From: Planctomycetota bacterium
GTDB taxonomy: Bacteria > Planctomycetota > PLA2 > JAEUHO01
NCBI GenBank assembly: GCA_020631815.1
Contig: JACKGW010000004.1
Coordinates: forward strand, 112,184 to 176,183
Length of the DNA stretch: 64,000 nucleotides
Direction: 5' to 3'
Shown: in pieces, positions 5,988-58,007 of the stretch
Numbering within the stretch: the stretch's first letter is position 1
Layout of the letters: each line of letters begins with the position of its first letter
Program-made: the position numbers and the translations under genes
Notes under the pieces: generated by a model
The model's database searches: none
Told to the model about the DNA's origin: nothing
Seen by the model: the letters and a program-made list of their open reading frames with translations, nothing else

Positions 5988-6029
5988 GGATCCTCCGACG
6001 CCCGTCAGGCGCCGGGCGGGGGCGCAAGT

Positions 6030-12681: not shown

Positions 12682-13740
12682 TCAGGGCGAAATCGCCGCC
12701 AGAGCTTTCGTGATCTCGTCGTTGGTGACGTCGTCGACGATGCGGACGTCGTCGGCGGCGATGGGGAGCACGAAGGTGTGACGCTGGTCGTCGGTGCGCT
12801 TCTTGTCCTCGCCGAGTGCGGCCAGGATCTCGGCGGCCGGCACGGTGGCCGGTAGCCGCACGGGCAGGCCCAGCCGCACCAGGTCGTCGCGCTGATGGGT
12901 GGCGTCGGCGGCGGGGATCAAGCCACGCCGCACGGCAAGGGCAGCGGCCACGACCATGCCCAGCGCCACGGCCTCACCGTGGCGCACGACCTCGGGACCC
13001 AGCACGCGCTCCAACGCATGGCCGACCGTGTGCCCGTAGTTCAAGCGTCGCCGCACGCCGAAGTCCCGCTCGTCCTGCGCCACCACCTCGGCCTTCAGGC
13101 GGGCGGAGGCCTCGAGGACGGCAACCCACGCCTGCGCGTCACGCGGCACGCCCGCAGCCAGGAGGCGATGCAACCCAGGCGCCCCCAGCCGCGCGCACTT
13201 GTAGACCTCGGCGAGACCCGCGTGCACCTCGCGCTCGGGCAACGTCGAGAGGTGGTCCACGTCGGCAATCACGTGCGCGGGCGGATGGAACACGCCCAAC
13301 AGGTTCTTGCCGCGCGGGTGGTTGACCGCCGTCTTGCCGCCGAGCGCCGCGTCCGCCATGGCCACGACCGTGGTGGGCACGGCGATCCAGGCGAGGCCGC
13401 GGCGCACGGTGGCCGCGGCAAAGCCCCCCACGTCCAGGGCGGCCCCTCCGCCGCGCACGATCACGGGCTCGTCGCGACGCAGCTCGAGCAGTGCATCTTG
13501 GACCGTGGCCAGCACGTCGCGCTGCTTGGCCGCCTCACCCGCAGGCAGCTTCACGACGACGGGCTCGAGGTCCTCCGGCCACGTGGGCGCAGGCCAGAGC
13601 GCGTCGACGTGCTCGTCCACGACGTAACCGACGCGCCGTGCGCGCGGGCCCAGCTCGCGGGCACGGGGGACGACGTCGCGCACCACGCCAACGCCCACGA
13701 CCATCTGCGTCGTGCCCAGCGGCGTGTCGAGGCGGATCAT
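12682..13740 (-). CDS. aroB: 3-dehydroquinate synthase
   Basis: Carries the NYGHTVGHALE metal-binding block, GGGAALDVGGFAAA and LPTTVVAMADAALGGKTAVN, which is the NAD/substrate region typical of AroB. 352 aa. Confidence 0.85.
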   Translation of the reverse strand: MIRLDTPLGTTQMVVGVGVVRDVVPRARELGPRARRVGYVVDEHVDALWPAPTWPEDLEPVVVKLPAGEAAKQRDVLATVQDALLELRRDEPVIVRGGGAALDVGGFAAATVRRGLAWIAVPTTVVAMADAALGGKTAVNHPRGKNLLGVFHPPAHVIADVDHLSTLPEREVHAGLAEVYKCARLGAPGLHRLLAAGVPRDAQAWVAVLEASARLKAEVVAQDERDFGVRRRLNYGHTVGHALERVLGPEVVRHGEAVALGMVVAAALAVRRGLIPAADATHQRDDLVRLGLPVRLPATVPAAEILAALGEDKKRTDDQRHTFVLPIAADDVRIVDDVTNDEITKALAAISP

Positions 13741-15272: not shown

Positions 15273-15420
15273 GTTGGTCTCGAGTTCCGTTCGGGTCGGA
15301 ACCGGGCGGGTCGCGAGCGCCGTAGGCTACCACGCGGTCGCCCCGGAACGGGGCCGGGCCCCACTGCGGAAGCGACGAGGAGGCCTCCAAGCGGTAGCGT
15401 TCCCGGCCGTGCTGCCGCCC

Positions 15421-16749
15421 GTGCTCCGCTCCCGCGCCGACCTCGCCCGCATGCTGGCGGCCGCGACGAACTACGAGGAACGGATGCCGCTCCGCGGCGT
15501 TCGCGCCAGCTTCGACCTCGATCGCGTGCGCCGCTTGTTCGCCGACCTGGGCGAGCCGCAAGCGGCATCGGGGGACGTGCTCCACGTCGCGGGCTCCAAG
15601 GGCAAGGGCACGACCGTGCGCCTGGCGGCCCACGCCCTGAAGCGCGCGGGCCGAGGGCCGGTCGGGCTCTTCACCTCGCCGCACCTCGAGGACCTCGCGG
15701 AGCGCATCGCGATCGACGGCGTCCGCATCGACGACGAGACGCTCGTCGGAGTGGCCGAGACGCTGCGCCCCCACTTGGCCAAGCGGCTGGGCACGCGCGA
15801 AGCGGCGACCTTCTTCGAGGTCACCCTGGCCATGGCGTGGATCGCCTTCCGCCAGGCGGGCACGCGCTCGGTAGCGCTGGAGGTCGGCCTCGGCGGCCGC
15901 CTCGACGCGACGAACGTCGTGTCGCCCAAGGCCACCGTCATCACGCACATCGAGCTCGAGCACACACGTCTGCTGGGCAACACGGTCGAGGCCATTGCCC
16001 GCGAGAAGGCGGGCATCGTGAAGCCCGGCGTGCCCGTCGTCGTCGGCGCCCAGGGCGCGGCCGCCGACGTGATCGAGGCCATCGCCCGCGAGCGCGGCGC
16101 CCCGTGTCGACTGCGCGGTCGCGACTTCGCCGTGCTCCGCCACGAGGTGCTGCCCGGAGCACGCGGGCGCGCGTGGCTGCGCACGCGCGACGGCGAGGTG
16201 GTGATGGACCTGCCCGCCGCGGGTCGTCCGGTCGCCGAGAACGCCGTCCTCGCCTACGAGGCGCTCCGCGACATGGGCCTCACCGCAAGCGAGCTCGACG
16301 GTGCGTTCGCCGACGCGAAGCTGCCCGCCGTGCTCGAGACGATCGCTGGCGAGCCGCGCGTGGTCGTGGACGGCGCCCACACGACGTCCTCCGCCAGCGC
16401 CGTCGCCACGACGATGGCCGAAGCCTTCCCCGACGAGCAGCCGCGCGTCCTCGTGGTGGCCTTGCTGAAGGAGAAGGACGCGGCGGGGATCCTCGCGCCG
16501 CTGGCCGCTTGGGCCACGCACGTGATCACGACGCAGGTCGAGAGCCCACGCGCCCGCCCGGCCCGCGAGACGGCCGATGTCATCGAGCGCATCACGAACC
16601 GCGCCGTCGAGCGCGTGTCCGATCCCGCCACCGCTTACGCGCGCGCCCGCCGCCTCGCGGCGCCCGGCGGCGTCGTCCTCGTCACCGGCAGCCTCTACCT
16701 GGCCGGTGCGGTGCGTGCGCTGGCTCGCGTCACTCCCTCTCCAACCTGA
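15421..16749 (+). CDS. folC: Bifunctional folylpolyglutamate synthase / dihydrofolate synthase
   Basis: Mur-ligase-family blocks are present (HVAGSKGKGTT P-loop, GLFTSPHL, EVGLGGRLDATN, VDGAHT). The start was trimmed to an in-frame GTG (15421) or ATG (15451). The long N-terminal extension of track ORF 15172 looks spurious. Confidence 0.8.
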   Translation: MLRSRADLARMLAAATNYEERMPLRGVRASFDLDRVRRLFADLGEPQAASGDVLHVAGSKGKGTTVRLAAHALKRAGRGPVGLFTSPHLEDLAERIAIDGVRIDDETLVGVAETLRPHLAKRLGTREAATFFEVTLAMAWIAFRQAGTRSVALEVGLGGRLDATNVVSPKATVITHIELEHTRLLGNTVEAIAREKAGIVKPGVPVVVGAQGAAADVIEAIARERGAPCRLRGRDFAVLRHEVLPGARGRAWLRTRDGEVVMDLPAAGRPVAENAVLAYEALRDMGLTASELDGAFADAKLPAVLETIAGEPRVVVDGAHTTSSASAVATTMAEAFPDEQPRVLVVALLKEKDAAGILAPLAAWATHVITTQVESPRARPARETADVIERITNRAVERVSDPATAYARARRLAAPGGVVLVTGSLYLAGAVRALARVTPSPT

Positions 16750-34810: not shown

Positions 34811-36283
34811 CTAGCGGATCTTCTCGAGCATGTCGGGGGCGTCGGGGACGAGCTCGCGGGGGTAGCGGCGCAGGATCGTCTGCAGCTTGCGGATGGCGTC
34901 CTGGCGCTGGCCGCTGTCGATGAGGTCGCGGGCCGAGCGCATGTCGGTGTCGACCTCGGTACGCGCCTTGTTGAGGATGTCGCCCTTCCACGTGCGGATC
35001 GTCGACTCGAGGTCGGTCCACGCCTCGCGCGTCATGCGTAGGCGGGCGATGCCCTCCAGGTCGGTCAGGCGCTCGATGGCCTTGTGGTAGAAGCGCGTCC
35101 CCACGAGCGACTCGACCGCCGGCCGCACTTCCTCCTTGGCCCGGTACGCCGAGTACTCGGGATCCGGATGCTCGCGCAGCAGCTGGCGGTAGTGCTGCAT
35201 GGTCTCGTCCTCGCCGGCGACGAGGTTCTTGACGGCCAGCGTGCCCGCGTAGCGATCCATCCACTCGTGGATGCGCTGGACGGTCTGGGTGTCGGTCATG
35301 GCGTCGACCGGATGCAGCGTGGGGCTCCAGCTCTTGCGGAGGATCTGCTTGTCCCAGAACTCGCGGGACTCGTCCTCGAGGCGCTGCGTCTGCAGGCTCT
35401 GCATGTGCTGGCGCCACGAGTCCATCTCGTCGTGCAGCAGGTCGTAGTGCTTGCCGCCCGGGTCGCCCTGCTGCTCGGCCAAGCGCAACGCGCGCTCGTA
35501 GCGATCGGGCGCCTGGCTGCCGCGCACGATGTCGATGCCCTCATGCAGGATGTCGCGGTTGCTCGAGGCCGTGCCGCCGAAGATCAGGAAGATCAACGCG
35601 CCGAACACGATGGCGCCGCCGATCACGCCCATGACGATCCAGGAGTTGTTGTTCTTGCGGGCGACGCGACGACCGGGGCGCTCGTCGTCGTAGTAGTCGT
35701 CGTCGTAGTCGTCCTCGCGGGCGCGACGACGCGAGGGCGCGGTGCGCGCGGGTGCGCTGCGCACCGGAGCTGCGGGCGCGGCGGCGACGGCAGGCGCGGC
35801 CACGGCAGGCTTCGGCGTCACGACGGGCTTTGCGGGCGCGGCCGGCTGCGCCGGTGCGGCCGGCACGGGCTTCACGGCCACGGCCGCCGGCTTGGCAGGC
35901 ACGGCCTTCGGCGTGACGACCGGCTTGGCCGCCACGGCCGGCTTGGCACCGACGGACTTGGGCTTGGCCACCTTGGCCACCGGCGGCCCCTGCTCGGCGC
36001 CATCGGCGGCGTAGGTGAGCGTGGCTTCCCCGATGCGGATCGCGTCGCCGTCCATCAGCCAGCGCTGGTTCAGCACGCGCCCGTTGACCGCGGTGCCGTT
36101 CAAGCTCTCGAGGTCGACCAGCTTCATCCGGCCGCGCACGCGCCGCACGACGGCGTGGTGCTTGCTGACGCCGTTGGCCGTGAGCTGCACGGCGTTGGCC
36201 GCGCCACGTCCGATGGTGACCTCGGGGTCGAGGATGTCGTACTCGACGGGCTCGCCCGCCTCCTGGATCGTCAATCGGGGCAT
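34811..36283 (-). CDS. FHA-domain membrane protein (N-terminal FHA, KP-rich linker, acidic tract, one TM, C-terminal extracytoplasmic domain)
   Basis: The start is set at MPRLTIQEAG. The FHA motifs are ITIGRG, VSKHHAVV and LNGTAVNGRV. It has a Lys/Pro/Ala/Val repeat linker (AKPAVAAKPVVTPKAVPAKP ...), a DDYDDDYYDDE tract and a TM helice (WIVMGVIGGAIVFGALIFLIF). Confidence 0.7.
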   Translation of the reverse strand: MPRLTIQEAGEPVEYDILDPEVTIGRGAANAVQLTANGVSKHHAVVRRVRGRMKLVDLESLNGTAVNGRVLNQRWLMDGDAIRIGEATLTYAADGAEQGPPVAKVAKPKSVGAKPAVAAKPVVTPKAVPAKPAAVAVKPVPAAPAQPAAPAKPVVTPKPAVAAPAVAAAPAAPVRSAPARTAPSRRRAREDDYDDDYYDDERPGRRVARKNNNSWIVMGVIGGAIVFGALIFLIFGGTASSNRDILHEGIDIVRGSQAPDRYERALRLAEQQGDPGGKHYDLLHDEMDSWRQHMQSLQTQRLEDESREFWDKQILRKSWSPTLHPVDAMTDTQTVQRIHEWMDRYAGTLAVKNLVAGEDETMQHYRQLLREHPDPEYSAYRAKEEVRPAVESLVGTRFYHKAIERLTDLEGIARLRMTREAWTDLESTIRTWKGDILNKARTEVDTDMRSARDLIDSGQRQDAIRKLQTILRRYPRELVPDAPDMLEKIR

Positions 36284-36351
36284 CGTCGTCTCCGGGCTCG
36301 GCACTCTACGGCAACCGGGGCGCGACACCCCGGGTGGGCGAGATGGACGGG

Positions 36352-39303
36352 TCAGCGGCCGGTCGTGGGCGGCGTCCGGCCGCCCGGGGCCGCAATCTCG
36401 GTGGTGGGCGCGATCTTGGGGGGTGCGCCTCCCCCGCTACCGAAGTTCTGGGTCCAGCGCCGGGCCATGTAGCCGACGCCCAGGTCTTCCCAGGGGCTGA
36501 GGATGTTGCGGTGGTGGCCGCTGGAGGTGCACCACGCCTTGTGGGCGTTGAGCGCACTGTCGTTCATCGCGATGTTCTCGGACATCGCCCAGCCGCGGTA
36601 GCCCTTGGCGTTCATGCGCTCGTGCGGCGCCGTCGTACCCGCCCCCGTCTCCGGGTTGGGCGGTGCGAAGTGGCTGAAGTAGCCGCGCCGCATCATGTCC
36701 TCGCTGTGCCCACGCGCGGCGAGCACCAGACGGTTGTCGATCCGCACGGCCCGCAACGGAGCCATGCGCAAGACGGTCCCGCCGTCGAGGACGGCCTTGG
36801 CCGTGGCGTCGGTGATCTCCTCGTAGGCGCCGGCTCCCGGCTGGACGGCGGCCGTGAAGCCCATCATGCGGCGGTACGCGTTGGTGATGGCCACCTCCTC
36901 GCGCTCGACGGCCTCCGCGGTCTCGGTGCGCGCGGGGTTGTAGACGTCGCGGACCCACGTGTCGTAGGCGAAGCGCTCACGCTCGGCGTCGTCCAGGAAG
37001 AAGGACTGGACGGTCCACGTCTCCCCGCCCGCATACGCGAGGTAGGGCCAGGCCGCGGCTTCGCGCTCCGGGGTGAGCGCCTGTCCGGCCTTCAGCGCCG
37101 CCAAGATCGCCTCCAAGCGGTCCAGCTGCTTGGCCAGGGCGCCGGTACGCTGGACGCGCGCCTTCGTGGCGTCGCTCCAGATGGCCTCGACGGCGCCGAC
37201 GCGACGCGCAACCTCGGCCTGCACGGCTTGGTAGGGCTTGCTGCCCTTGTTGTACGGATAGGGATAGTGCGTCTCGTTGAAGATGGCGAGCAGCGCGTAC
37301 TTGCGCGCCTCGTCCAAGCGCGTGCGGACGTCGCGCACCTTCTGCAGCTTCTTGTAGGCCGACTCCTTGGCGAGATCCGCGAGGAGGTCGTCGAGCTCGC
37401 TCGAGAGGCTCGCCAAGCGCTCCTGCTCGACGGCCCGCTCGTAGGTCGGTGTGTCCAGCAGGTCGCCGGCATGCAGGCGGTAGCCACCCGGGGGCGGTGT
37501 CGCACGGCCGTAGAGGTGGCGGGCCACGATGCGATCGGCCAGCGCGCGGTCGCCGTTCTCGCACGTGTACACGGGCGCGAGCACCTCGACGGCGTCCTTG
37601 CGCCGGTCCAAGGCCGCTGCAAGCACGGCCACGTTCAGGCGCGACTCGAACGTGAGCGGCGTGGGCTCGAGCAGCGTGATGACGTCGTCGGCCGGGAGCG
37701 CGCCCCAGAGATGCGGGGCCGCTTCGCCATCGCCCACCCGCCACGTCACCGTGTCGCCGTCGGCAGCCGTCACCGTGATGCGGCCCAGCGAGATCTTGAA
37801 GGTCGGCGGCTTCTCCGCGGCGCGCGTCGACAGCGTCTCGGTCAGGGCCACGATGCGGCCGAGATCCTCGACCATGGCGCGCGCGTCGGCCGCCAGGTCG
37901 GGTCCCGCCGCGCCGTCGGCCAGCGAGGCAAACGCCGCACGGGCGGAGCCCCAGCGACGCTGCGTCATGTCCTCGCGCGCACCGCCAAGACGCGCCAGGG
38001 CCTCCGCGGGAACCGTCCCGCCGGTCGGGCGCGGGTTGGTCGGTCGATCCGGCCCGGCCGTCGGAGCCGTGGGCGTGGTGCCGGCGGGCGTCGGCGCCTC
38101 GGCGGAGCCGCTGCGCAACGTGCTGCGTACCTGCTCGGCCACGAGGCGCTCGAGCGAGGTACCGGCGAGATCGCGCGTGGCGTCAATCAAGAGACCGAGC
38201 CGTGCGTCGGGCGCCGCCTTGGCGATCGCCGCGCGCACCTCGTCGTAGCGGGCGCGCGAGGCGGCCTCGACCTGCTCCTTCAGGCGGCCGTAGCGCGTGA
38301 GGGCGCCGGAGGAGAGCCCCAGCCGTCGCTCGCCGAGCGCGCTCACCAGCGCCTCGGCCTGCCCGAACCTGCGCGCACTCAGCGCCGCCTCTACGCCGGC
38401 GGACACGGCGGCCAGGCGCGCGCCGTCGGCCTCCTCTTGCGTGCGATCGGCGACGAGCAGTGCATCGGCGACGCGGTCCGCGAGGATCTTGTCGCCTGCG
38501 ACTTCCGTACGCAGACGGACGAGGTCGATCCGGGCGTCGGCCAAGCTGTCCGGCCCGAGTCGGCCGAGCACGGCACCCAAGCGCCGCTCGGCCGCATCAT
38601 GCCGCTCGACCGCCGTGCGTGTGGCCGCTGCGTGTCGCGCCAACAAGGAGGCCTCGGGCGTGCCCTCGTGGCGGGCCACGAAGGCCTCGGCCTTCTCCAC
38701 GAACCCCTCGCCACTGGCGCGCTCGGCCAGGATGTCGAGGGCCTCTTGGCGGAGTGCCGCCCGCTCGGTCTGGCGACGCGCCGAGCCGCCGAACCAGTGG
38801 TCGGCCCCCCACCACAGCAGGGCGGCCAGCGCCACCAGGATGCCGCCCTTGACGAGGGCCGAGGCGTCGAGCCCGGCCGCCGCCGGAGCAGGCCGCTCGC
38901 GGCGCGGACGCGGCTCCTCCCGCGTTTCGGCCGGCGGCTCCGGGGCCGCGACGGCCGCCGGCTCGGCCGCCACGGTGCGCACGGACAGCAGCGTGGACGC
39001 AACGAGTGCCTCGGCCGGCCCCCCCAGGTCGATGCGCGTGGCGCCGATGCGAACGCTCTCGCCGTCGGCGAGGCGGCGGCGCGCGACGCGCTGATCGCCG
39101 ACCCACGTCCCGTTGGCCGAGGCAAGGTCCTCGACGATCCACCCGCCCCCCTCCAGCGGCGTCACGCGCGCATGGCGCCGCGAGGCGCGGGGCTCGGTGA
39201 TGAACGCCTCGGCGTCCTCGGCACGCCCGATGACGGCGCCCTCCGGACCCACCTCGAAGCTGCGGACGGGCTCGTCCGGGGCGTGGATGTCGATGCGCGG
39301 CAT
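36352..39303 (-). CDS. FHA-domain membrane protein with a C-terminal CAP/SCP (PR-1-like) domain
   Basis: The start is set at MPRIDIHAPDEP. It has an FHA region (VIGRAEDAEAFI ... ASRRHARV ... SANGTWV), a TM anchor (ILVALAALLWWGA), a roughly 650 aa helical region and a C-terminal CAP-like block (AARGHSEDMMRRGYFSH ... GYRGWAMSENIA ... WCTSSGHHRNIL). Confidence 0.7.
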   Translation of the reverse strand: MPRIDIHAPDEPVRSFEVGPEGAVIGRAEDAEAFITEPRASRRHARVTPLEGGGWIVEDLASANGTWVGDQRVARRRLADGESVRIGATRIDLGGPAEALVASTLLSVRTVAAEPAAVAAPEPPAETREEPRPRRERPAPAAAGLDASALVKGGILVALAALLWWGADHWFGGSARRQTERAALRQEALDILAERASGEGFVEKAEAFVARHEGTPEASLLARHAAATRTAVERHDAAERRLGAVLGRLGPDSLADARIDLVRLRTEVAGDKILADRVADALLVADRTQEEADGARLAAVSAGVEAALSARRFGQAEALVSALGERRLGLSSGALTRYGRLKEQVEAASRARYDEVRAAIAKAAPDARLGLLIDATRDLAGTSLERLVAEQVRSTLRSGSAEAPTPAGTTPTAPTAGPDRPTNPRPTGGTVPAEALARLGGAREDMTQRRWGSARAAFASLADGAAGPDLAADARAMVEDLGRIVALTETLSTRAAEKPPTFKISLGRITVTAADGDTVTWRVGDGEAAPHLWGALPADDVITLLEPTPLTFESRLNVAVLAAALDRRKDAVEVLAPVYTCENGDRALADRIVARHLYGRATPPPGGYRLHAGDLLDTPTYERAVEQERLASLSSELDDLLADLAKESAYKKLQKVRDVRTRLDEARKYALLAIFNETHYPYPYNKGSKPYQAVQAEVARRVGAVEAIWSDATKARVQRTGALAKQLDRLEAILAALKAGQALTPEREAAAWPYLAYAGGETWTVQSFFLDDAERERFAYDTWVRDVYNPARTETAEAVEREEVAITNAYRRMMGFTAAVQPGAGAYEEITDATAKAVLDGGTVLRMAPLRAVRIDNRLVLAARGHSEDMMRRGYFSHFAPPNPETGAGTTAPHERMNAKGYRGWAMSENIAMNDSALNAHKAWCTSSGHHRNILSPWEDLGVGYMARRWTQNFGSGGGAPPKIAPTTEIAAPGGRTPPTTGR

Positions 39304-39468
39304 GCGGCTCCTCCGGGAGGCAATTGGCAAGCGGCGTGCCGTCGCCGACGGGCAGACGCCGCGACGCGAAGCCCTTGAAACCGGGCCGGGCGGGGCCTTG
39401 GCAGATTCCGCCACACCGCGCCGGATGTGCGACGTCAACCGACCCGACGCCTCACGCGATGCCGCGCG

Positions 39469-41570
<2,102 letters not shown>

Positions 41571-41571
<1 letters not shown>

Positions 41572-44387: not shown

Positions 44388-46100
44388 TCAGCGGCGGTCG
44401 GGTGAGGCGAACACGCGGCCGTGGCTCCAGAGAGCCGCCCCCGCCAGCGACGCCAGCGCGGTGGCCGTGGTCCTGCCTCCCGGCAAACGCATGCGCTTGG
44501 GTGGGTCGACCGATCCGAAGTGGCAGCAGGGATGTCCGTCGGTGCGCGACTTCGTGCCGAGGGCCCCACCGAACACCGCTTCCCGCAGACGCTCCCGCGT
44601 CGGGCCACTGCGCTCCCGGGATGCAAGGGCGACGAGCCATACGTGCAGGGGATCGGGTGCTGCTGCTTGGGTGACCAGGGCTTCGACCTGCGACGCCAGG
44701 GCGGCGCGCAGCTCGGTATCGGTGTCGCTGTCTGGATCCAGGGCCACGCGCGCCACCAGGCCACAGGCAGAACGAAGGTCTCCGCCGTCGAGCCGCCAGG
44801 AGCGAACCTCGCGCAGGACGCGTGCGACGAGATCGGCATCCACAGCGAGCGGTGCCGGACGCCCGTGCTCGAGTGCGTCGCGGTTGACGACACCGGCCGA
44901 ACCCAAGCACAGGGCAACCAGGGCTGTCGCAACCGGATCGTCGCCCGCCGCGTCGCATGTGGCGGCAAGGGCGTCGAGGGCTCGCTGGGCGGAGCCCTTG
45001 AAGATCGGGCTGCCCGTCATGCCATAGGCCTCGTTCATGGCCAGGGCCGCCAGGCCGTGGGACACACCGGCGGACCAGCCCGAGGCCGGTGGGTAGCGAC
45101 CGTCGGGCGTCTGCACGTCCTTCAGGTGCTTCAGCCCCCTGCTCACGCAGCGCGCGTACGGGTGGAGGCCGCGATTCGTGTAGCCGCCGGCGAGGAAGGC
45201 GAGCAAGCAGAGTCCCGTCTGCCCGGGGTTGGCGGTCGTCTCTGGTTCGGGAGGCAGCGTGCTCCCGCGCAGGGGCCGTCCCTGGCAGGTGATCGCCGCG
45301 AGGGCTTCGTCCCACGCACCGGACGGCGCCGCGTGCATGCTCAGCCACGTGAGTGCCCGGTCGTCGGCGTCGACGAACGGCTTGCGGTCGCGTGACACCC
45401 TCCCAAGGCGCACGGGTGGAAGCCCGGCTGCGTGGGCGACGGCCAGGAGGGGCAACACCGCTTCGGCAGGCAGATCGGGATCGGCACGCAGGTGGACGGC
45501 GTCCTCGTCCGCCTCCGCCGTCGTGCCAAGACTCGCCAGGGCCTCGCGCCAGAGCGCGATCGAGACCCCCCACTCGCTCCAGGCGACTCGCGCGTCACAG
45601 CCGCCCTCCGTGACCCAGGCGGCGCCCACGGCCTCAACACGCGTGCGCGTGGGCCTCCCGGCGATCTCGACCTCGATGCCGGTGGGATCTGTCACGCCGC
45701 GGCGTGATGCGAAGGTCCCGACGGCGGCGAGACCACATGCGTCAGGGAGCAGCACGTGGACGCACGCGCGCGGTTCGAGGCCCTCGCGCTCGCGAGCCCG
45801 CGCGGCAGCTTCGTCGACGGCTTCCAGGACCGAACCCCACGTCGCCTGGGCAGGGATCACGAGGCGGCCCGCGTCGTCCACGCTCGCGCGCGGGGGCGGG
45901 TCGGCCGGGTTTGGGCCTGCGTACCCGCGGAGCGGCGCGGGATACCCCACCAACCCGGGGCCGCGAGGCGCGACGTCACACGACTCGGCGCAGGGTTCGG
46001 TCAGGGAGAGTCCCTGCTGCTCGCGGCCGTGGTCGCTCCCGCTTGCCACTGCCACGACAAGCGAACCCGCGAGAACAGAGCCGAGCAGACGAGTTCCCAC
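44388..46100 (-). CDS. Secreted hypothetical protein (570 aa), possibly an alpha/alpha-toroid prenyltransferase/terpene-cyclase-like fold
   Basis: GTG start with signal peptide (GTRLLGSVLAGSLVVAVASG). Repeated Gly/Trp-containing helical hairpins (GLCLLAFLAGGYTNRGLHPYARCVSRGL ... DGRYPPASGWSAGVSHGLAALAM) suggest an alpha-toroid fold. The fold assignment is speculative. Confidence 0.5.
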   Translation of the reverse strand: MGTRLLGSVLAGSLVVAVASGSDHGREQQGLSLTEPCAESCDVAPRGPGLVGYPAPLRGYAGPNPADPPPRASVDDAGRLVIPAQATWGSVLEAVDEAAARAREREGLEPRACVHVLLPDACGLAAVGTFASRRGVTDPTGIEVEIAGRPTRTRVEAVGAAWVTEGGCDARVAWSEWGVSIALWREALASLGTTAEADEDAVHLRADPDLPAEAVLPLLAVAHAAGLPPVRLGRVSRDRKPFVDADDRALTWLSMHAAPSGAWDEALAAITCQGRPLRGSTLPPEPETTANPGQTGLCLLAFLAGGYTNRGLHPYARCVSRGLKHLKDVQTPDGRYPPASGWSAGVSHGLAALAMNEAYGMTGSPIFKGSAQRALDALAATCDAAGDDPVATALVALCLGSAGVVNRDALEHGRPAPLAVDADLVARVLREVRSWRLDGGDLRSACGLVARVALDPDSDTDTELRAALASQVEALVTQAAAPDPLHVWLVALASRERSGPTRERLREAVFGGALGTKSRTDGHPCCHFGSVDPPKRMRLPGGRTTATALASLAGAALWSHGRVFASPDRR

Positions 46101-46145: not shown

Positions 46146-47276
46146 CTAGCGACGGCGGCGACGACGGACGGGAGCGGGGGCCGCGGCCGAGGCGCCGGGC
46201 TTGCTGGCGGCGGCGCGAGAGACCACGCCGGCTCCGGGCATGGGCTCGGAGAGGCGGGCGGCCTGGAGCGCCTTGAGGACCTCCTCGATCTCCTCGGCCA
46301 GCTCCTTGGCGCGGCCGCGGGCGGCCGGGTCCTTGGAGAGCAGGCGCGAGACGAGTGCATCCGTGCGCGGGTCGATGGTGGGGTCTTCCTCGAGCACCGA
46401 CGGCACGGCGGCCGTGAGGTGCTGCGCGAGGACGGACGACGCATCGGGGCCCACGTAGGGCGGGCGGCCGGTGAGCATGTGGAACAGCGTGGCGCCGAGG
46501 CTGTAGAGGTCGGTGCGCTCGTCGACCTTGGCGTCGCCGCGGGCCTGCTCCGGGCTGATGTAGTCGGGCGTCCCCATGCGGCGCGCGTCGGCGTCGTCCA
46601 GCTCCAAGCGGGCGAGGCCGAAGTCGCTGAGCTTGGCCACGCCGTCCTTCGTGAGCAGGATGTTGGCGGGCTTCACGTCGCGGTGGATGAGATTGGCCTT
46701 GTGCGCGTGGTCCAGCGCGCGCGCCATCTGCTGCGCGACGTGCAGCACGCGCTCCTCGTCCATGGCGCCGCCGCGCTCGAGCAGGTCGGCCACCGTGAGA
46801 CCGTCGGCGTACTCCATGACGAGGTAGCGCACGCCACCCGAGTCACCCACGTCGATGCCGCTGATGATGTTGGTGTGGTTGAGGCGCGCGACGGCGCGGG
46901 CTTCCGTGAGGAAGCGCTGCACGTGCTCGTCGTCTTGCGCGAGGTCGGGTGACAGCACCTTGATGGCCACCTCGCGGTCGAGCGACAACTGGCGGGCCTT
47001 GTAGACGGCCCCCATCGCGCCCTCGCCCAGTCGATCGAGCAAGCGGTAGCCCGCGATCTGCTCGCCGCCCGACGCGCGCCGACGGCGACGCTCGAGGTCG
47101 TCGTAGGTGTCCTGGTCGATGGCGCCGCGCTCCTGCAGGAGCGAGAGCAGCGTGCGCGCCTTGAGACCCATCGAGGACAGGCGTCCCTGGATCTCGCGGA
47201 CTTCCTCGACCTGCTCGGCCGTGAGCTGACCGGCTTCCACGAGCTCGGCGATCAGGGCGTCCTCGCTGGCGTCCAC
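46146..47276 (-). CDS. Ser/Thr protein kinase (Hanks-type)
   Basis: Kinase subdomains are present (LGEGAMGAVYKA, AIKVL, HRDVKPANILL, DFGLAR, GTPDYISPE). The ATP-binding-loop context places the true start at GTG 47276. 376 aa with a basic C-terminal tail. Confidence 0.85.
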   Translation of the reverse strand: MDASEDALIAELVEAGQLTAEQVEEVREIQGRLSSMGLKARTLLSLLQERGAIDQDTYDDLERRRRRASGGEQIAGYRLLDRLGEGAMGAVYKARQLSLDREVAIKVLSPDLAQDDEHVQRFLTEARAVARLNHTNIISGIDVGDSGGVRYLVMEYADGLTVADLLERGGAMDEERVLHVAQQMARALDHAHKANLIHRDVKPANILLTKDGVAKLSDFGLARLELDDADARRMGTPDYISPEQARGDAKVDERTDLYSLGATLFHMLTGRPPYVGPDASSVLAQHLTAAVPSVLEEDPTIDPRTDALVSRLLSKDPAARGRAKELAEEIEEVLKALQAARLSEPMPGAGVVSRAAASKPGASAAAPAPVRRRRRR

Positions 47277-54318: not shown

Positions 54319-55239
54319 CTAGGGCAGGTCCTCGAGCGCGGCTTCGTAGCTGGCGATGTCGTGGGCAGCACCCAGCGAGCCGAGCCGCGCGGCACGCTCC
54401 AGCAGGAGGGCCAGGACTCCTTCCAGTCCCTTGGCGAGTGCGCTCAAGGCAGCCAGCGGGTCGTCCAGCTCGAGCTCGCGCAGGATGGACTGGATCAACG
54501 AAGCCGTTCCAAGCTGGGCGTCGGTGACGTCGTGAAGCCCGCCAGCACTCGGCCTCCGTACGCCTGGCACATGCTGGTACCCCCACTCCCCTAGCGGCAG
54601 GTGAGGTACCGGATCGTGCGCTGCGGCAAGGGCGAGGTAGCGATCCCCCAGGGCGTTGCGTGCGGATGTCGCCCAGGCCCCATCTCCCACGCGAGGCTGG
54701 CCGAAGGTCGCCACGCCCTGCAGGGGCACGTGCGTCGTACGCAGCAGATCGAGTGCGGCGAGGGTCGCGAGTGCACCGCCGAGGCTGTGCCCGGTGATCC
54801 ACAATCGCAGGGCAGGGTCCGCTGCCTGCTTTGCGACAAGCTCGGCCTTCAGGGCTTCCCAGTCGTAGCTCCCGCTTCCCGTGACGGTGAGCCCTCGATG
54901 GAACCCTGCATGGCGGCGCCCGCCACCTGTGTCGCTCAGGAGCACGGCCCGGGCATTGAGGACCCAGTCGTTCACCCTCATCTCGCTCCCGCGGAAGGCG
55001 AGGACGACCCAGCCATCCTGCTGCAGGACCAGCAGCTGGGTGTCGGGGTCCACCCGCGTACGGGGCGAGCACGATCGCAGGTCGACGGGAACCGTGCCCA
55101 GCGCCTCTTCGAGTGCTGCAGGTCCGAGGTAGGCGAGGTGACTTGCCCGCGCGAGGGCGCGCAGGACATCGCCGTGGCCCACGGGGAGCGGGCTCGCCAC
55201 CGCCATGCCGTGGGGATCCGTCCATCGAAGCTGGCTCAT
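54319..55239 (-). CDS. Class-3 (fungal-type) lipase family alpha/beta hydrolase
   Basis: The start is set at MSQLRWTD. Has the nucleophile elbow GHSLGGALA preceded by VVLAFRGS and followed by conserved Asp/His regions (FGQPRVGD ... HD). This is the Lipase_3 pattern. The start overlaps the stop of the upstream patatin-like gene. Confidence 0.7.
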   Translation of the reverse strand: MSQLRWTDPHGMAVASPLPVGHGDVLRALARASHLAYLGPAALEEALGTVPVDLRSCSPRTRVDPDTQLLVLQQDGWVVLAFRGSEMRVNDWVLNARAVLLSDTGGGRRHAGFHRGLTVTGSGSYDWEALKAELVAKQAADPALRLWITGHSLGGALATLAALDLLRTTHVPLQGVATFGQPRVGDGAWATSARNALGDRYLALAAAHDPVPHLPLGEWGYQHVPGVRRPSAGGLHDVTDAQLGTASLIQSILRELELDDPLAALSALAKGLEGVLALLLERAARLGSLGAAHDIASYEAALEDLP

Positions 55240-58001
55240 GGATGCGGGCTCCCTCCGACGACCGGAGTCGCAGGCTCGCCGCAATGGTCGACATCCGCTC
55301 CGGACCGCAGTCGCAACGCAAGGTACTCGCCGATGGCTCGATAGGCTTCGAACTGCTCTTCGTCGTAGGCGAGGTCATAGGTCGGTGTGTGGGGAAAGCG
55401 ATCGTCTGACCGTGACCTCGACGCAACCACGACGGGCTCACGGGACGGTCCGCCTTCACCCCCGTCGTCGTTCAGGGCGAGCTTGATGTAGATGAGCCGA
55501 CCCTCCTCGGGCCCCGGCGGGACCGCGCTTGACGTGGCAACAGGATAGCGGACTGTTCCCTCGACGATCTGGGTGCGCGTGCGCGACCCGGCACTGGCTA
55601 GAAGAGCGGGCAGTCCCAGCTGCACGTCCACGTTCTCGTCGACCAGGCACTGCCGAATGGCCGACGCGAGGGAACCGCAGCGCAGCCCTGGGTCATTCTC
55701 GGCATCCAAGACCACGATGAGCCGACAGCGCCGCTGCACCAAGGCCACCAACCCCAGGTTGTCGCCCGCATGGGCGCCGTCGGACAAGTTGACGAACGCC
55801 CCCTCGGCATGAGTCGTCCCAGTGCACTCAGCGAGCATGCGCCTCAGCCAGGGCAAGGGCCCAATTGACGGCTCGCCGTCTCGTGTAGCGCGCGCGGGGG
55901 CCGTTCCGGGTCGGCCTTCAACATCCGAGTGCATCGCCGGATTCGGCAGCCACATGCCAAGGCGGATGTTGAACAGCGTGAGGAAGAAGGCGCGGGAGGC
56001 CGTGTGGAACCAGCCGAGGACACTGCTCACCGCGGCACCCGATACGGCCATGGCCTGCGCCAAGGTCAGGCGGCCGTTCCAATACTCGCGGGTGCGAACG
56101 AATCCGGTCAGCGCGCTTCCACACCACAGCGGCGAGAAGAAGAAGGGGATGGCGCGACGCCGGCTTTGCGTGACATGGGAAGCCCCCGGGACATTGAGCG
56201 ATGCGCCGAGGATGTGGTACGGAGCAGGGGGGACTCGCCCGCCTCGCGCATGCCCTGCCGCACCTAGTGCCTTGCACAAGCGGAGTTCGCGGTGATCGCG
56301 CACTCGATCGCGGACTCGGGCGGCGCCGATCAAGCCCTCGGGGGGGAGTGCGCGATACGCAGGCGTCGGTCCTCCCCCCTCGTCAGGCCCGCCTGATGAC
56401 CTCTCGCCAGCATCCGTCGGCGGCGTCGACTCCGACGGCCCGTCCTCCCACTGGTCGAGTGTGAGGTAGGCCTCGGCCAAACGGTCTCTGTAGAAGCCAT
56501 GGGGACCGAGGGCGTCGTAGTTGACGTAGGAGAGAAGGCCGACAATCGAAATCGCACTGCCCAAGGTGACGTAGAGCACGCCGGAGCCATGGAGCATGAT
56601 CATGGACGCTAGAACGTGCAGAAGGAGGCCTGCACCGAGGAGCAGCGTGACTACGGCCAAGCTTGGCAGGAGGGCGCGGCGCGTGAGCTGCGTCTGCCAT
56701 GAAGGAGGGCCCCCGTCCCCTTGCTTGCCCAGCCATCGCGCAAGCCAGGGCGCCGTGACAAGCGTCGTAGCGAGAGTCCATGCGGACGAGAGCTCCATGG
56801 AGCCTAGCCAAGCCGCGAAGGGAAGTAGCGCCGCGGCTAGCAAGCAAGCTCCAAGTCCGACAAAGCCGAGCCCGAGGAGGGCGGCCGCGAAGCTGCGCTC
56901 CACCGCTGTTCGACGCCCGCCCCTTCGTGAAGCGAAAGCCTCGGCAAGCAGCCCGCCCAAGAGGGCGCCGAGGAAGATGCCGGTCGGCACCCACGCGACA
57001 GAGCGTGGGCCGTCCCCTTGCTCGCCCCCCGCGATCCAACTCATGGCCAACCCCGTCAGGATCACGAGGATCACGATCGAGAAGGCGTGGCGCTGCAGGA
57101 TCACCTTCTCGACGGCGTCCTCCGCGGTATCACTCGATCGCGGCTTCCGCCTCTGACGGCCAAGCAGGCTGGCGAGCTCACGCTTCCATACGGCGAAGCG
57201 AACGAGTGTGTAGACCATTCCAACTGCCATGGCGCGAACGAACGATCTGCCTGTTGGATCCCAGGCGCCCATCACGAGCGTCCATGTGCGACTTGCGTTG
57301 CCCTCAGCCAAGGGTTGGAACAACGCAGAGCCGACAAACACGTGCGTGAGCATCGCGAACAAGCTCATGACCACTGCGAGCACCGCAGCGAAGAACAGCA
57401 GCGAGCCGACGGTGCCGCGGATCACTGTCCCCAGGGCGCGGAGCGTGTCACGGCGGAACATCCCCAGCGAGCCGATGACCAGGTTCCCGTGCGCCCGCAG
57501 GTGGTGAAGCTGCCCGGCAGCAGCGTCCCCTAGTGGGAAGTTCCCGCCCATGTCAAGTCCGGACCACGACCAGCGCGACTGCCCCGCCCGGGTTGCGCTG
57601 GCGGCATCCGGTTCGTCGGAGAACAAGGACGTGAGGCAGCCCCCGATGTAGCCGCCACCTGAGATGGTGGACAGAAGATCGAAGCGCGCTAGCAGGCCAC
57701 GCCTGGCGAGCCCCTGCAGGAATCCCAGGGCGACGGTTGCTGCCCGCAACCCTCCCCCGGACAGCGCCAAGCCCGCGAGCGTGCTACTGACCCGCGAGAC
57801 GTCCTCGGTCGTGCCGGTCTGGATAGAGGCCCGACGCCTGACCAGGTAGTCCAACTCGGCCTTGATTACGGCATCCGGGAGGGTCCGGTGACCACGCCTT
57901 CGTTCCTGTTGCTCCTGCGCCCCCGGCTGAGGAGGCGCGCCTGCGGCAGACGCATCCACCACGGCGCGGGAGGTAGCCCTGGGCGGCTTCTCGGTTGCCA
58001 C
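55236..58001 (-). CDS. Polytopic membrane protein carrying split patatin-like phospholipase motifs
   Basis: GTG start 6 nt after the upstream gene's stop. Patatin blocks: oxyanion GGGLRAA (around aa 82), serine elbow STISGGGYIGG (around aa 125) and Asp block LSDGAHAGDNLG (around aa 735). Between the serine and Asp blocks lie about 600 aa with at least 8 strongly hydrophobic helices (for example LLFFAAVLAVVMSLFAML, FSIVILVILTGLAMSWIAG, LLGLGFVGLGACLLAAALLPFAAW, LLPSLAVVTLLLGAGLLLHVLASMIML). Confidence 0.65.
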   Translation of the reverse strand: MATEKPPRATSRAVVDASAAGAPPQPGAQEQQERRRGHRTLPDAVIKAELDYLVRRRASIQTGTTEDVSRVSSTLAGLALSGGGLRAATVALGFLQGLARRGLLARFDLLSTISGGGYIGGCLTSLFSDEPDAASATRAGQSRWSWSGLDMGGNFPLGDAAAGQLHHLRAHGNLVIGSLGMFRRDTLRALGTVIRGTVGSLLFFAAVLAVVMSLFAMLTHVFVGSALFQPLAEGNASRTWTLVMGAWDPTGRSFVRAMAVGMVYTLVRFAVWKRELASLLGRQRRKPRSSDTAEDAVEKVILQRHAFSIVILVILTGLAMSWIAGGEQGDGPRSVAWVPTGIFLGALLGGLLAEAFASRRGGRRTAVERSFAAALLGLGFVGLGACLLAAALLPFAAWLGSMELSSAWTLATTLVTAPWLARWLGKQGDGGPPSWQTQLTRRALLPSLAVVTLLLGAGLLLHVLASMIMLHGSGVLYVTLGSAISIVGLLSYVNYDALGPHGFYRDRLAEAYLTLDQWEDGPSESTPPTDAGERSSGGPDEGGGPTPAYRALPPEGLIGAARVRDRVRDHRELRLCKALGAAGHARGGRVPPAPYHILGASLNVPGASHVTQSRRRAIPFFFSPLWCGSALTGFVRTREYWNGRLTLAQAMAVSGAAVSSVLGWFHTASRAFFLTLFNIRLGMWLPNPAMHSDVEGRPGTAPARATRDGEPSIGPLPWLRRMLAECTGTTHAEGAFVNLSDGAHAGDNLGLVALVQRRCRLIVVLDAENDPGLRCGSLASAIRQCLVDENVDVQLGLPALLASAGSRTRTQIVEGTVRYPVATSSAVPPGPEEGRLIYIKLALNDDGGEGGPSREPVVVASRSRSDDRFPHTPTYDLAYDEEQFEAYRAIGEYLALRLRSGADVDHCGEPATPVVGGSPHP

Positions 58002-58007
58002 GAGCGC

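Follow-up and report, generated by a model that had tools for sequence, protein, structure and literature searches.

We analyzed a 64,000-nucleotide stretch of planctomycetal DNA (hereafter the window) and found at 36352..39303 on its minus strand a gene whose product carries an FHA domain, a single transmembrane (TM) segment, a long helical region and a CAP/SCP (PR-1-like) domain, in that order from the N-terminus. This FHA-TM-CAP architecture is real, the domain matches not being due to chance, and it belongs to a populous family rather than to a one-off protein. The conserved core of the family is a new helical domain, here named M3, joined to the CAP domain. In the clade of the target the gene is placed between genes for an FHA-GAF-sigma54 activator and a second FHA-TM protein. 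The reading to which we give slightly better than even credence is that the target is an envelope protein controlled by sigma-54 and a Ser/Thr kinase, acting from the inside out.

Gene structure and domain architecture

The ORF encodes 983 residues, from an ATG at 39303 to a stop codon at 36352-36354; the 984 aa of the preliminary description had included the stop codon. Four full-length homologues are 59-100% identical to the protein. The GC content at the three codon positions (0.73/0.57/0.90) is usual for genuine genes in this 72% GC window. An overlapping ORF of 1014 aa on the opposite strand (36334-39378, plus strand) was rejected as it fails the third-position GC filter applied to the target, and its translation is rich in Arg, Gly and Ala, as the antisense frames of high-GC DNA usually are. 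Three observations favor the ATG at 39303 as the start: a Shine-Dalgarno sequence, GGAGGAG, at 39308-39314, the aligned N-termini of the homologues and a promoter-like element upstream. That an N-terminal FHA domain, a single TM segment and a C-terminal CAP domain occur in one protein, as had been proposed earlier, was borne out by Pfam matches, by the one hydrophobic segment and by a model with the CAP fold.

The predicted cytoplasmic FHA domain occupies residues 1-95 (39019..39303, minus strand), and the Pfam FHA model (PF00498) matches residues 24-87 (E = 1.2e-13, 51.7 bits against a cutoff of 20.7). Its canonical pThr-binding residues are complete (G26-R27, S41-R-R-H44 for the S-x-x-H motif, and N64-G65-T66) and invariant across four close homologues. 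Among family representatives they are retained in 83-99% (G in 89/90, H in 88/90, S in 76/90, R and N in 75/90 each), with R27, S41 or N64 lost in about 15%. Among solved structures, its nearest relatives are the FHA domains of Rv1747, FhaA/TB39.8 and GarA, which bind pThr. Judged by its residues, the domain is a canonical pThr-reading domain with predicted pThr binding. It is followed by a predicted cytoplasmic juxtamembrane linker (residues 96-146; 38866..39018, minus strand), delimited from the sequence and the homologue alignment and rich in Pro, Ala, Arg and Glu, whose Ser/Thr residues (S103, T104, S108, T110 and T127) are possible phospho-acceptors.

The TM segment spans residues ~147-170 (ASALVKGGILVALAALLWWGADHW; 38794..38865, minus strand). 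Exactly one 19-residue interval exceeds 1.6 on the Kyte-Doolittle scale, with a peak of 1.88 within residues ~145-167 (...ASALVKGGILVALAALLWWGADHWF), and a helix begins at residue 148 in the structure model. Exactly one strong hydrophobic segment lies between FHA and CAP in 83/90 family representatives, while a further 6/90 have one strong and one marginal segment. The 15-residue flanks of the TM segment contain, across the family, 4.1 Lys and Arg on the N-terminal side versus 2.3 on the C-terminal side. In the target itself this bias is weak, with Arg on both sides, so the argument for topology leans on the family. No N-terminal signal peptide is present in the target, and two FHA-less M3-CAP homologues (P0171 and P0178) carry N-terminal Sec signal peptides. 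On the grounds of the single family-wide TM segment, the positive-inside bias and these two signal peptides, we predict an N-in/C-out topology. The extracytoplasmic CAP domain of the preliminary description is in keeping with this prediction, as every topology indicator puts FHA inside and CAP outside rather than both domains in the cytoplasm.

A new helical domain joined to a CAP fold

Between the TM segment and the CAP domain lies a region of ~630 aa that is mainly helical and has no Pfam match. It begins with M1 (residues 181-400; 38104..38763, minus strand), which is predicted to be periplasmic and was modeled as long helices at pLDDT 75-85. The M1 profile matches just the closest representatives; by this measure M1 is conserved only in the closer clade. 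A flexible Pro/Thr-rich linker (residues 401-430; 38014..38103, minus strand), with pLDDT below 35 and no modeled secondary structure, separates M1 from M2 (residues 431-615; 37459..38013, minus strand), a helical region with a small beta part that was delimited from the model and profiles. The C-terminal part of M2 packs against M3-CAP in the model. Neither M1 nor M2 matched any Pfam family.

M3 (residues 616-800; 36904..37458, minus strand) was delimited from its profile, conservation and model. Throughout the family it lies directly N-terminal to CAP, and of the best 150 representatives about 140 show the pairing of the two. Its motif core is LAIFNETHYPYPY (in fuller form, LDEAR..ALLAIFNETHYPYPYN...YQAVQ.EV..R....W.), and R667 (136/139), Y680 (132/139), P683 (125/139) and W709 (133/139) are strongly conserved. 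The AlphaFold2 model gives M3 a pLDDT above 94, and the domain matched nothing in the PDB by structure comparison or in Pfam.

The CAP domain itself spans residues 801-955 (36439..36903, minus strand), as placed by Pfam, NCBIfam, alignment, model and Foldseek. Pfam CAP (PF00188) matches residues 807-945 (E = 1.7e-8, 35.7 bits against a cutoff of 21.1). The two motif blocks by which the C-terminal region had been called CAP-like were located at 901-912 (GYRGWAMSENIA) and 924-935 (WCTSSGHHRNIL), and the assignment held up in this above-cutoff match as well as in the modeled fold. Residues 545-983, modeled with AlphaFold2 from an alignment of 29 sequences, gave a pLDDT of 93.8 and a pTM of 0.86, the latter suggesting that these residues form one rigid unit. 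The significant PDB matches of the model were solely bacterial SCP/CAP structures, namely 4IFA (Foldseek E = 3e-6, rmsd 2.2 Å), 4D53 (BB0689; E = 7e-4, target-normalized TM-score 0.68) and 4H0A. According to the model, the C-terminal domain has the CAP alpha-beta-alpha sandwich fold.

The cavity residues H866, H878, E909 and H930 are each kept in 143-145 of 147 representatives, and the same holds for R896, W924 and the H931-R932-N933 run. H866 (in HSEDM), E909 (in SENIA) and H930 (in SGHHRNIL) align with GHSKDM, GENIA and GHRKNLL of 4IFA. In our reading of this alignment the three would occupy classical CAP tetrad positions (motifs CAP3, CAP4 and CAP1), and the invariant H878 apparently takes the place of the second acidic CAP residue. 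The protein ends in a Gly/Pro/Thr-rich tail (residues 956-983; 36355..36438, minus strand), which is partly conserved in the alignment (GGGAP...PTT...R.PP) and disordered in the model.

A populous planctomycetal family

A search with the family profile at E ≤ 1e-30, counted as clusters at 50% identity, returned 197 clusters. FHA and CAP occur together in at least 90 of the best 150 clusters, and when diverse members were scanned Pfam CAP matched 52/52 and FHA-type models 37/52. The architecture had been called unusual; this stands relative to the CAP proteins that have been studied, but not in sequence space, where it represents 197 clusters. All named members are from Planctomycetota MAGs, and the family appears, as seen so far, to be specific to this lineage. 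We found no paper on an FHA-TM-M3-CAP family in a literature search.

Relation to characterized proteins

The closest comparison for the CAP domain is with bacterial SCP/CAP proteins: the YkwD family (TIGR02909), 4IFA from B. anthracis, BB0689 from Borrelia (4D53) and SAV1118 from S. aureus (4H0A). These have the same fold, are extracytoplasmic, as predicted for the target head, and share with it the motifs HSxDM, YFSH, (G/S)ENIA, W..SxGHxxN(I/L)L and tQNF. However, they are short (about 130-340 aa) and either secreted or lipoproteins, whereas the target is TM-anchored behind a predicted cytoplasmic FHA domain and, compared with YkwD-type proteins, has a ~630-aa stalk and an obligatory M3 fused to CAP. 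Membership in TIGR02909 was rejected (55 bits against a cutoff of 171).

DalA (RSP_1200) of Rhodobacter sphaeroides is a divisome-associated outer-membrane lipoprotein that binds peptidoglycan non-covalently and has a role in cell division (PMC10470522). It was the sole bacterial CAP relative with a tested molecular activity found in our literature search. The DalA model NF052539 matches the CAP-type region of the target at residues 836-946. Orthology was rejected, as the match scored 29 bits against a cutoff of 200 and the target has no lipobox and begins with an FHA domain. DalA, in contrast, is small, without FHA, TM or M3, and comes from Rhodobacterales, not Planctomycetota.

For the FHA domain, the best matches are the mycobacterial regulators FhaB/FipA (Rv0019c), FhaA (TB39.8) and Rv1747 (NF049868, 63.1 bits; 6CAH, 3PO8 and 2LC1). 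Their logic resembles that proposed for the target in that an FHA domain reads phosphorylation by a Hanks-type kinase and is tied to the membrane or cell envelope. FipA is bitopic, as the target is predicted to be, but its FHA domain is C-terminal to the TM segment and it has no large periplasmic domain; none of these regulators has a CAP domain. Membership in the FhaB/FipA family was rejected, since the score of 63.1 bits falls short of the cutoff of 125 and only the FHA part is covered. YscD/PrgH of type III secretion, TagH/Fha of type VI secretion and Myxococcus GltG have the layout predicted for the target, with a cytoplasmic FHA-type domain, a single TM segment and a large periplasmic part. 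They differ in that their periplasmic part is unrelated, while the target keeps its pThr-binding residues and has no machine genes nearby. The models for YscD-type domains (PF16697, Yop-YscD_cpl; 29.9 bits against 33.2) and GltG (NF033760; 37.9 against 650) matched the FHA fold only, below their cutoffs.

Genomic context and a putative sigma-54 promoter

Upstream of the target lies a gene for a 700-aa FHA-GAF-sigma54 AAA+ activator-HTH_8 protein (39469..41571, minus strand), identified by domain search and here called the EBP. Its Sigma54_activat match scores 235.9 bits, and the protein has a Walker A motif (GESGTGKE) as well as the loop that contacts sigma-54 (GSFTGA). Downstream, 68 nt past the target stop, a second gene (34811..36283, minus strand) encodes a protein with an FHA domain, an Ala/Pro/Lys-rich linker, one strong TM segment (Kyte-Doolittle 2.75) after RRRAR...RRVARK, and a predicted periplasmic helical domain of ~250 aa that has no Pfam family. 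The FHA domains of the EBP, the target and this FHA-TM neighbor are mutually 35-44% identical.

The order FHA-EBP, target, FHA-TM is kept in the related loci L001-L003 (84% identity) and L013 (about 42%). Taken singly, the EBP gene is also upstream of the target homologue in L001, L002 and L013, and the FHA-TM gene downstream of it in L001-L003, L013 and L014; in L004 the FHA-TM gene is present, with inserted genes separating the two. L014 has no adjoining EBP, and the distant loci L031 and L033 (about 25% identity) have no adjoining EBP or second FHA-TM gene, so the three-gene module does not define the family. PADLOC anti-phage models gave no match for the target or the FHA-TM neighbor, and the EBP matched generic AAA+ activator models only.

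Three genes upstream of the cluster, a soluble Hanks-type Ser/Thr kinase of 376 aa without a TM segment is encoded at 46146..47276 (minus strand). An orthologue (58% identity) occupies the equivalent place in L013, and none is syntenic at that place in L001. The kinase gene sits among housekeeping genes (UvrD, YbeY and PhoH), and its proximity may be mere synteny; the enzyme is a candidate writer for the FHA readers. Envelope or LPS genes also occur nearby, namely LptF/G here and a Kdo/WaaP kinase and PMT plus GT2 in relatives. No secretion, pilus or motility genes were found within the 64 kb or in the related loci examined, and rpoN was not identified among the ORFs scanned in the window.

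The 165-nt gap after the EBP gene contains a sigma-54-type -24/-12 element, GGCACGCCGCTTGC (39327..39340, minus strand), 24 nt upstream of the target ATG. It is the single exact match to GGCAC-N5-TTGC in the 64 kb on both strands, where 0.73 would be expected. As this count alone is not significant, the argument for a sigma-54 promoter rests on position and conservation. The element is identical in L001 and reads GGCACGGCGCTTGC in L004, while flanking sequence diverges; in L009, L013 and L014 it is degenerate, and since L014 also lacks an adjacent EBP, sigma-54 control is at best clade-specific. The locus combines a correctly spaced -24 GG/-12 GC element with an EBP whose AAA+ domain and GAFTGA-type loop are intact, and we infer that the target gene is sigma-54-dependent. 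Planctomycetota have been reported to use sigma-54 systems (PMC12316311). About 65-110 nt further upstream is a conserved block, TTGACG-N19-TGGCGGAATC (39404..39438, minus strand), of which GGCGGAATC or a close variant is present in 6/6 aligned loci and duplicated in three. This block is a candidate activator-binding site or second promoter.

FHA-domain sigma-54 enhancer-binding proteins were reportedly described in Myxococcus xanthus by Jelsbak, Givskov and Kaiser in 2005. The FHA-(GAF)-AAA+-HTH arrangement of the upstream neighbor resembles them, a likeness that concerns the neighbor and not the target. Together with the -24/-12 element, the FHA-EBP may link Ser/Thr-kinase signaling to sigma-54 transcription. 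Our literature searches returned no description of an EBP whose apparent target operon encodes two further FHA proteins, one of them with a CAP head.

Discussion

In the scheme that we favor, the target would be a bitopic inner-membrane protein with a cytoplasmic FHA domain, one TM helix, a periplasmic M1-linker-M2 stalk and an M3-CAP head at the far end. A sigma-54 promoter fired by the adjoining FHA-GAF EBP would drive the target and probably also the next gene. A Hanks-type Ser/Thr kinase, for which the soluble enzyme at 46146-47276 is the obvious candidate, would make pThr epitopes to be read by the three related FHA domains of the EBP, the target and the FHA-TM neighbor. Kinase activity would in this way both switch on the operon and dock or cluster the two membrane proteins from inside, and docking would position or activate the periplasmic head on an envelope ligand. 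For this ligand we would first guess a glycan such as peptidoglycan, by analogy with DalA, though the head might also act on a lipid or in a metal-dependent reaction; the peptidoglycan idea is an analogy only, because the DalA match is far below cutoff (29 versus 200 bits). The analysis establishes the identities of the domains, the CAP fold, conservation across the family, the gene order and the promoter-like element; sigma-54 dependence, kinase identity, inside-out direction, ligand and topology (a prediction) are all inferred here.

The "transmembrane coupling" of CAP to phospho-signaling proposed in the preliminary description is likewise putative and corresponds to a sensor working outside-in, with the kinase or the partner of the FHA-EBP as an example of what the FHA domain might capture. 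Binding of a ligand from the environment or from envelope damage to M3-CAP would alter the oligomeric state and hence the capture or release of the pThr partner, tuning sigma-54 transcription. The predicted layout is receptor-like, with a conserved extracytoplasmic pocket, a single TM segment and a cytoplasmic interaction domain, and the related FHA domain of the adjoining EBP could compete for the same epitope. However, FHA is a reader domain without catalytic output, and conformational transmission to the TM segment is unlikely through a flexible Pro/Thr linker and a ~630-residue stalk. Characterized membrane-associated FHA proteins (FhaA, FipA, T6SS Fha1 and the FHA domains of Rv1747) are kinase-controlled and are not known to act as sensors. 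With the promoter placed before it, the target gene itself looks like an output of the EBP, and distant members have no EBP neighbor. We consider such a sensor unlikely; kinase-dependent recruitment or control of an envelope protein fits the evidence at least as well. Highly improbable, in our estimate, is a phospho-independent scaffold in which the FHA-like fold is a ring-building or docking module, as in YscD/PrgH or GltG, and the target a strut of a trans-envelope machine. The long helical region predicted to span the periplasm, the second FHA-TM protein encoded next door and the weak matches to Yop-YscD_cpl (29.9 bits) and GltG (37.9 bits) would suit it, but these matches are below cutoff (33.2 and 650) and confined to the FHA fold. 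YscD-type domains have lost the pThr-contacting residues, whereas all are present and conserved in the target family, and the lack of secretion, pilus or motility genes in the 64 kb and related loci also argues against a machine.

It could also be speculated that M3-CAP is a metal-dependent hydrolase or remodeler of peptidoglycan, glycan or lipid, anchored in the inner membrane and merely localized by its FHA domain, for example to growth or budding sites. The His/His/Glu/His cluster, Arg896 and Asn910 are near-invariant down to about 23% identity, and conservation of this degree is seen more often at catalytic or metal sites than on a loosely binding surface. M3, which always accompanies CAP, adds invariant Arg, Tyr and Trp residues, and LPS or envelope genes (LptF/G and, in relatives, Kdo/WaaP kinase and PMT plus GT2) are nearby. 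On the other hand, we know of no CAP domain with a firmly established enzymatic activity, nor of any catalysis by the closest solved bacterial CAP proteins, 4IFA and BB0689, and the neighbors represent conserved housekeeping synteny rather than a dedicated pathway. A periplasmic enzyme of this kind therefore seems very unlikely to us. We give a little more weight, though still a low one, to the broader idea that M3-CAP is an unrecognized periplasmic catalytic or ligand-receptor module, with a His/His/Glu/His metal site and the Arg/Tyr/Trp of M3, that is switched or placed from the cytoplasm by Ser/Thr phosphorylation read through FHA. If true, a mechanistic function would for the first time be known for a bacterial CAP domain, and Planctomycetota would have a lineage-specific wiring of Hanks kinases to their unusually large periplasm, with an envelope polymer or lipid (peptidoglycan, glycan, sterol or hopanoid) as its target.

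CAP/PR-1 domains are ubiquitous yet functionally obscure in bacteria, peptidoglycan binding by DalA being the only tested activity that we found. With a CAP head hard-wired to a pThr reader that is predicted to be cytoplasmic, this large family gives experiments a concrete point of attack. In one clade the protein is linked besides with a sigma-54 activator and with another FHA membrane protein, and from all this a kinase, a promoter and pocket residues emerge as worth testing. M3, a conserved domain without a name and a constant companion of CAP, is absent from Pfam and is likewise defined by this family, which appears to be specific to Planctomycetota, a phylum whose envelope, periplasm and division are atypical and poorly understood.

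An FHA domain and a CAP domain in a single gene product

The minus-strand open reading frame 36352-39438 had codon-position GC values of 0.73/0.57/0.90, the signature of a real gene, in a window whose GC content is 70-75% throughout. Within it, the biologically sensible choice of predicted start is the ATG at 39303: it is preceded by a Shine-Dalgarno sequence (GGAGGAG) 5 nt upstream, and the same N-terminus (MPRI or MSRI) aligned in three of four homologues. The product of the gene at 36352-39303 (-) is therefore 983 aa long. The preliminary description had the coordinates exactly right but counted the stop codon in its 984 aa.

We also considered the antisense frame at 36334-39378 (+; 1014 aa) as a gene. 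It failed the codon-position GC filter, as third positions showed no GC signal, and it would encode a low-complexity string of Arg, Gly and Ala. On these two grounds we regard it as a high-GC artefact. Shadow ORFs of this kind overlap most genes of the window.

The assignments first made by eye for the two ends of the protein were both borne out. Pfam matched an FHA domain at residues 24-87 (E = 1.2e-13, 51.7 bits against a cutoff of 20.7) in which all the canonical phosphothreonine-contacting residues are present (G26-R27, S41-x-x-H44, N64-G65-T66), and a CAP domain at residues 807-945 (E = 1.7e-8, 35.7 bits against a cutoff of 21.1). By sequence, the nearest solved relatives of the FHA domain are the phosphothreonine-binding domains of Mycobacterium tuberculosis Rv1747, FhaA/TB39.8 and GarA, while that of the CAP domain is 4IFA, a Bacillus anthracis SCP-domain protein; the alignment with 4IFA contained the bacterial SCP motif set (GHSxDM, YFSH, (G/S)ENIA, W..S.GH..N.L and tQNF). 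Pfam scores thus place the protein in the FHA and CAP superfamilies. Its NCBIfam matches were all below threshold; the FHA domain accounted for those to FhaB/FipA and GltG, and the CAP domain for those to YkwD and DalA. By Pfam and NCBIfam scores, the protein is not a member of the YkwD, DalA, FipA, YscD or GltG families. The three regions between the transmembrane segment and the CAP domain, M1 (181-400), M2 (431-615) and M3 (616-800), gave no credible Pfam match when scanned separately at E<=10. A PADLOC search for defence-system membership returned no matches.

Predicted membrane topology

Only one 19-residue window of the protein exceeded a Kyte-Doolittle value of 1.6 (peak 1.88, residues ~145-167), and an N-terminal signal peptide is absent. 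Exactly one transmembrane-type segment lay between the two domains in 83 of 90 family representatives possessing both, and six more had one strong segment (2.3-2.7) and one marginal one; the median distance from the FHA domain to the segment was 48 residues. Across the 90 representatives, the 15-residue flanks carried 4.1 Lys and Arg on the N-terminal side compared to 2.3 on the C-terminal side. A Sec signal peptide was present at the start of P0171 and of P0178, two M3-CAP homologues that lack an FHA domain (the N-terminus of P0178 is MRDRILSAAVVLVLGLSAPALA/DK). The single segment, the charge bias of its flanks, the missing signal peptide and the Sec peptides of the FHA-less homologues all agree on a predicted topology with the FHA domain inside and the CAP domain outside, which is the arrangement originally proposed.

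M3 and CAP form the conserved head

An AlphaFold2 model of the full-length protein, built on four aligned sequences, had a mean pLDDT of 54, with the CAP region below 40, and we replaced it with a model of residues 545-983 based on 29 aligned homologues (pLDDT 93.8, pTM 0.86). A pTM this high across 439 residues points to a single rigid unit in the model, made up of the end of M2 together with M3 and CAP. Foldseek searches of the PDB with this model gave significant matches only to bacterial CAP/SCP structures (4IFA, BB0689 (4D53) and SAV1118 (4H0A)), and no meaningful match to the helical part N-terminal to CAP.

The region between the transmembrane segment and M3 is variable across the family (400-600 residues). 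M1 is recognizable in the closest clade only, two members have TPR repeats at this position, and in our protein the region is broken up by a disordered Pro/Thr-rich linker (residues 401-430). The invariant part of the family is M3 plus CAP. R667, Y680, Y682, P683 and W709 are near-invariant in M3. In CAP, 142-145 of 147 representatives, with overall identities as low as ~23%, keep H866, H878, R896, E909, N910, W924, S927, H930, H931, R932 and N933. Such conservation speaks for a pocket with a specific function, putatively catalysis or the binding of a metal or ligand, and against a generic surface.

An abundant family in Planctomycetota

A word-indexed search retrieved only four full-length relatives (59-100% identity). 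An exhaustive profile search returned 197 representatives of 50%-identity clusters at E<=1e-30. With our own segment profiles, at least 90 of the best 150 representatives had both FHA and CAP, many of the remaining members being contig fragments, and ~140 had the M3-CAP pair. A Pfam scan of 52 diverse members, a set deliberately enriched for those missed by our narrow FHA profile, found CAP in all 52 and FHA-type models in 37.

All named members come from Planctomycetota metagenome-assembled genomes and are annotated only as "FHA domain-containing protein", "CAP domain-containing protein" or "YkwD". A third word-indexed search with a diverse alignment, seeking named or cultured members, yielded only the four close homologues and unrelated FHA proteins, and literature searches combining FHA with CAP, or Planctomycetes with either, found no paper on the FHA-CAP architecture. 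On the basis of the profile counts, the names and the literature, this architecture is real, abundant and unstudied, and apparently restricted to the phylum. The preliminary description called it unusual; this is true in comparison with characterized CAP proteins, but the architecture is not rare.

The same type of CAP domain occurs in other Planctomycetota architectures (P0185, P0186, P0125, P0133 and P0053), including ~1380-aa proteins that combine CAP with HEAT repeats and proteins with two or three tandem CAP domains. One 914-aa protein has seven tandem FHA domains.

Neighboring genes

The local minus-strand order begins with a Ser/Thr kinase gene (46146-47276), followed by a 570-aa ORF (44388-46100), uvrD, a gene for an FHA-GAF-sigma54 AAA+ activator-HTH protein (EBP, 39469-41571) and the FHA-CAP gene. 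After a gap of 68 nt comes a gene for a second FHA membrane protein (FHA-TM, 34811-36283), and then an arginase gene on the opposite strand and LptF/G. The 570-aa protein belongs to no Pfam family and has only a faint squalene-cyclase-repeat match (E = 1e-4; 21 bits, cutoff 322). The Walker A motif of EBP is intact, and a GSFTGA loop is present. FHA-TM consists of an FHA domain, a low-complexity linker of ~110 residues (~105-215) rich in Ala, Pro, Lys and Val, an acidic run (DDYDDDYYDDE) immediately before its transmembrane segment, and a periplasmic helical domain of ~250 aa that matches no Pfam or NCBIfam family. The three FHA domains of the cluster are 35-44% identical pairwise; the proteins otherwise share nothing. 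Elsewhere in the window, at 55236-61418 (-), GC content falls to 0.66-0.67 in the region at 56-60 kb, compared to 0.70-0.75 in the remainder. Of two very long ORFs there, which encode 921 and 1136 aa, one has only a sub-threshold patatin match and the other no Pfam family.

The order EBP, FHA-CAP, FHA-TM recurs in the related loci L001-L003 (84% identity) and L013 (~42%), and the last two genes are paired in L014 and L004 as well. A kinase orthologue (58% identical) occupies the same relative position in L013 and is absent from the equivalent position in L001. We rejected the three-gene cluster as a family-wide trait: the distant loci L031 and L033 (~25% identity) have an unrelated downstream gene and no adjoining EBP gene. 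The module is therefore a feature of the clade and not of the family.

In L004, whose protein is 61% identical to ours, genes for a PMT-family (GT39/ArnT-like) glycosyltransferase and a GT2 enzyme are inserted at 3684-6037 between the FHA-CAP homologue and FHA-TM. PMT enzymes O-glycosylate Pro/Thr-rich sequences of the kind found in periplasmic stretches of our protein, at residues 401-430 and 956-983, and periplasmic O-glycosylation of our protein is thus a possibility.

A sigma-54-type element upstream of the FHA-CAP gene

The 165-nt gap between EBP and the FHA-CAP gene holds a sigma-54-type element, GGCACGCCGCTTGC (39327-39340 (-)), 24 nt before the ATG. It is the only exact match to GGCAC-N5-TTGC in the 64-kb window, both strands counted (0.73 expected by chance). 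Loose matches with up to two mismatches were not enriched in the window (49 compared to 60.7 expected); what carries weight is the exact match, where it lies and how it is conserved. It is identical in L001, reads GGCACGGCGCTTGC in L004 amid diverged intergenic sequence, and is degenerate in L009, L013 and L014, the last of which also has no adjoining EBP gene. Sigma-54 systems are reported to be in use by Planctomycetota (PMC12316311).

Some 65-110 nt upstream of the element, the same gap contains the conserved block TTGACG-N19-TGGCGGAATC (39404-39438 (-)), which is present in six of six aligned loci and duplicated in three. Its position suits a candidate activator-binding site. The window contains just one further copy of GGCGGAATC, at 15215-15223 (+), which falls in the overlap of two divergent ORFs (13737-15272 (-) and 15172-16749 (+)); two copies are not above chance (0.84 expected). 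Between 34.4 and 41.8 kb, a generic scan for sigma-70 promoters and for terminators was uninformative (no promoters, and three terminator-like sites compared to 1.7 expected).

A proposed model for control from the cytoplasm

The protein combines a phosphothreonine-reader fold with its binding residues intact, a single transmembrane segment, a long helical stalk with a flexible linker and a rigid M3-CAP head whose pocket is invariant; its gene adjoins two more FHA genes, one encoding a sigma-54 activator, and follows a conserved -24/-12 element. We propose that the three related FHA domains would read kinase activity, which would switch the operon on through EBP and would dock or cluster both bitopic proteins from the cytoplasmic side. 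Through this docking, the periplasmic head would be placed on a ligand of the envelope or activated there. Alternatively, and less probably, the CAP head may sense an external ligand and signal inward. However, the FHA domain has no catalytic output, conformational signals would pass poorly along a stalk that contains a disordered linker, and the characterized bacterial FHA-membrane systems (FhaA, FipA, Fha1 and Rv1747) are kinase-controlled. For these reasons we favor inside-out control over outside-in sensing.

As for the ligand, the one tested activity that we found for bacterial CAP-type proteins is that of DalA, which binds peptidoglycan non-covalently (PMC10470522); our protein scores only 29 bits with the DalA model, against the NCBIfam cutoff of 200. 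It is alike in kind to other FHA-anchored bitopic envelope proteins, while the M3-CAP periplasmic module, the apparent restriction to one phylum and the context of sigma-54, EBP and three FHA domains are new. These data overturn nothing; the protein offers a tractable entry into the function of bacterial CAP domains and into envelope signalling in planctomycetes.
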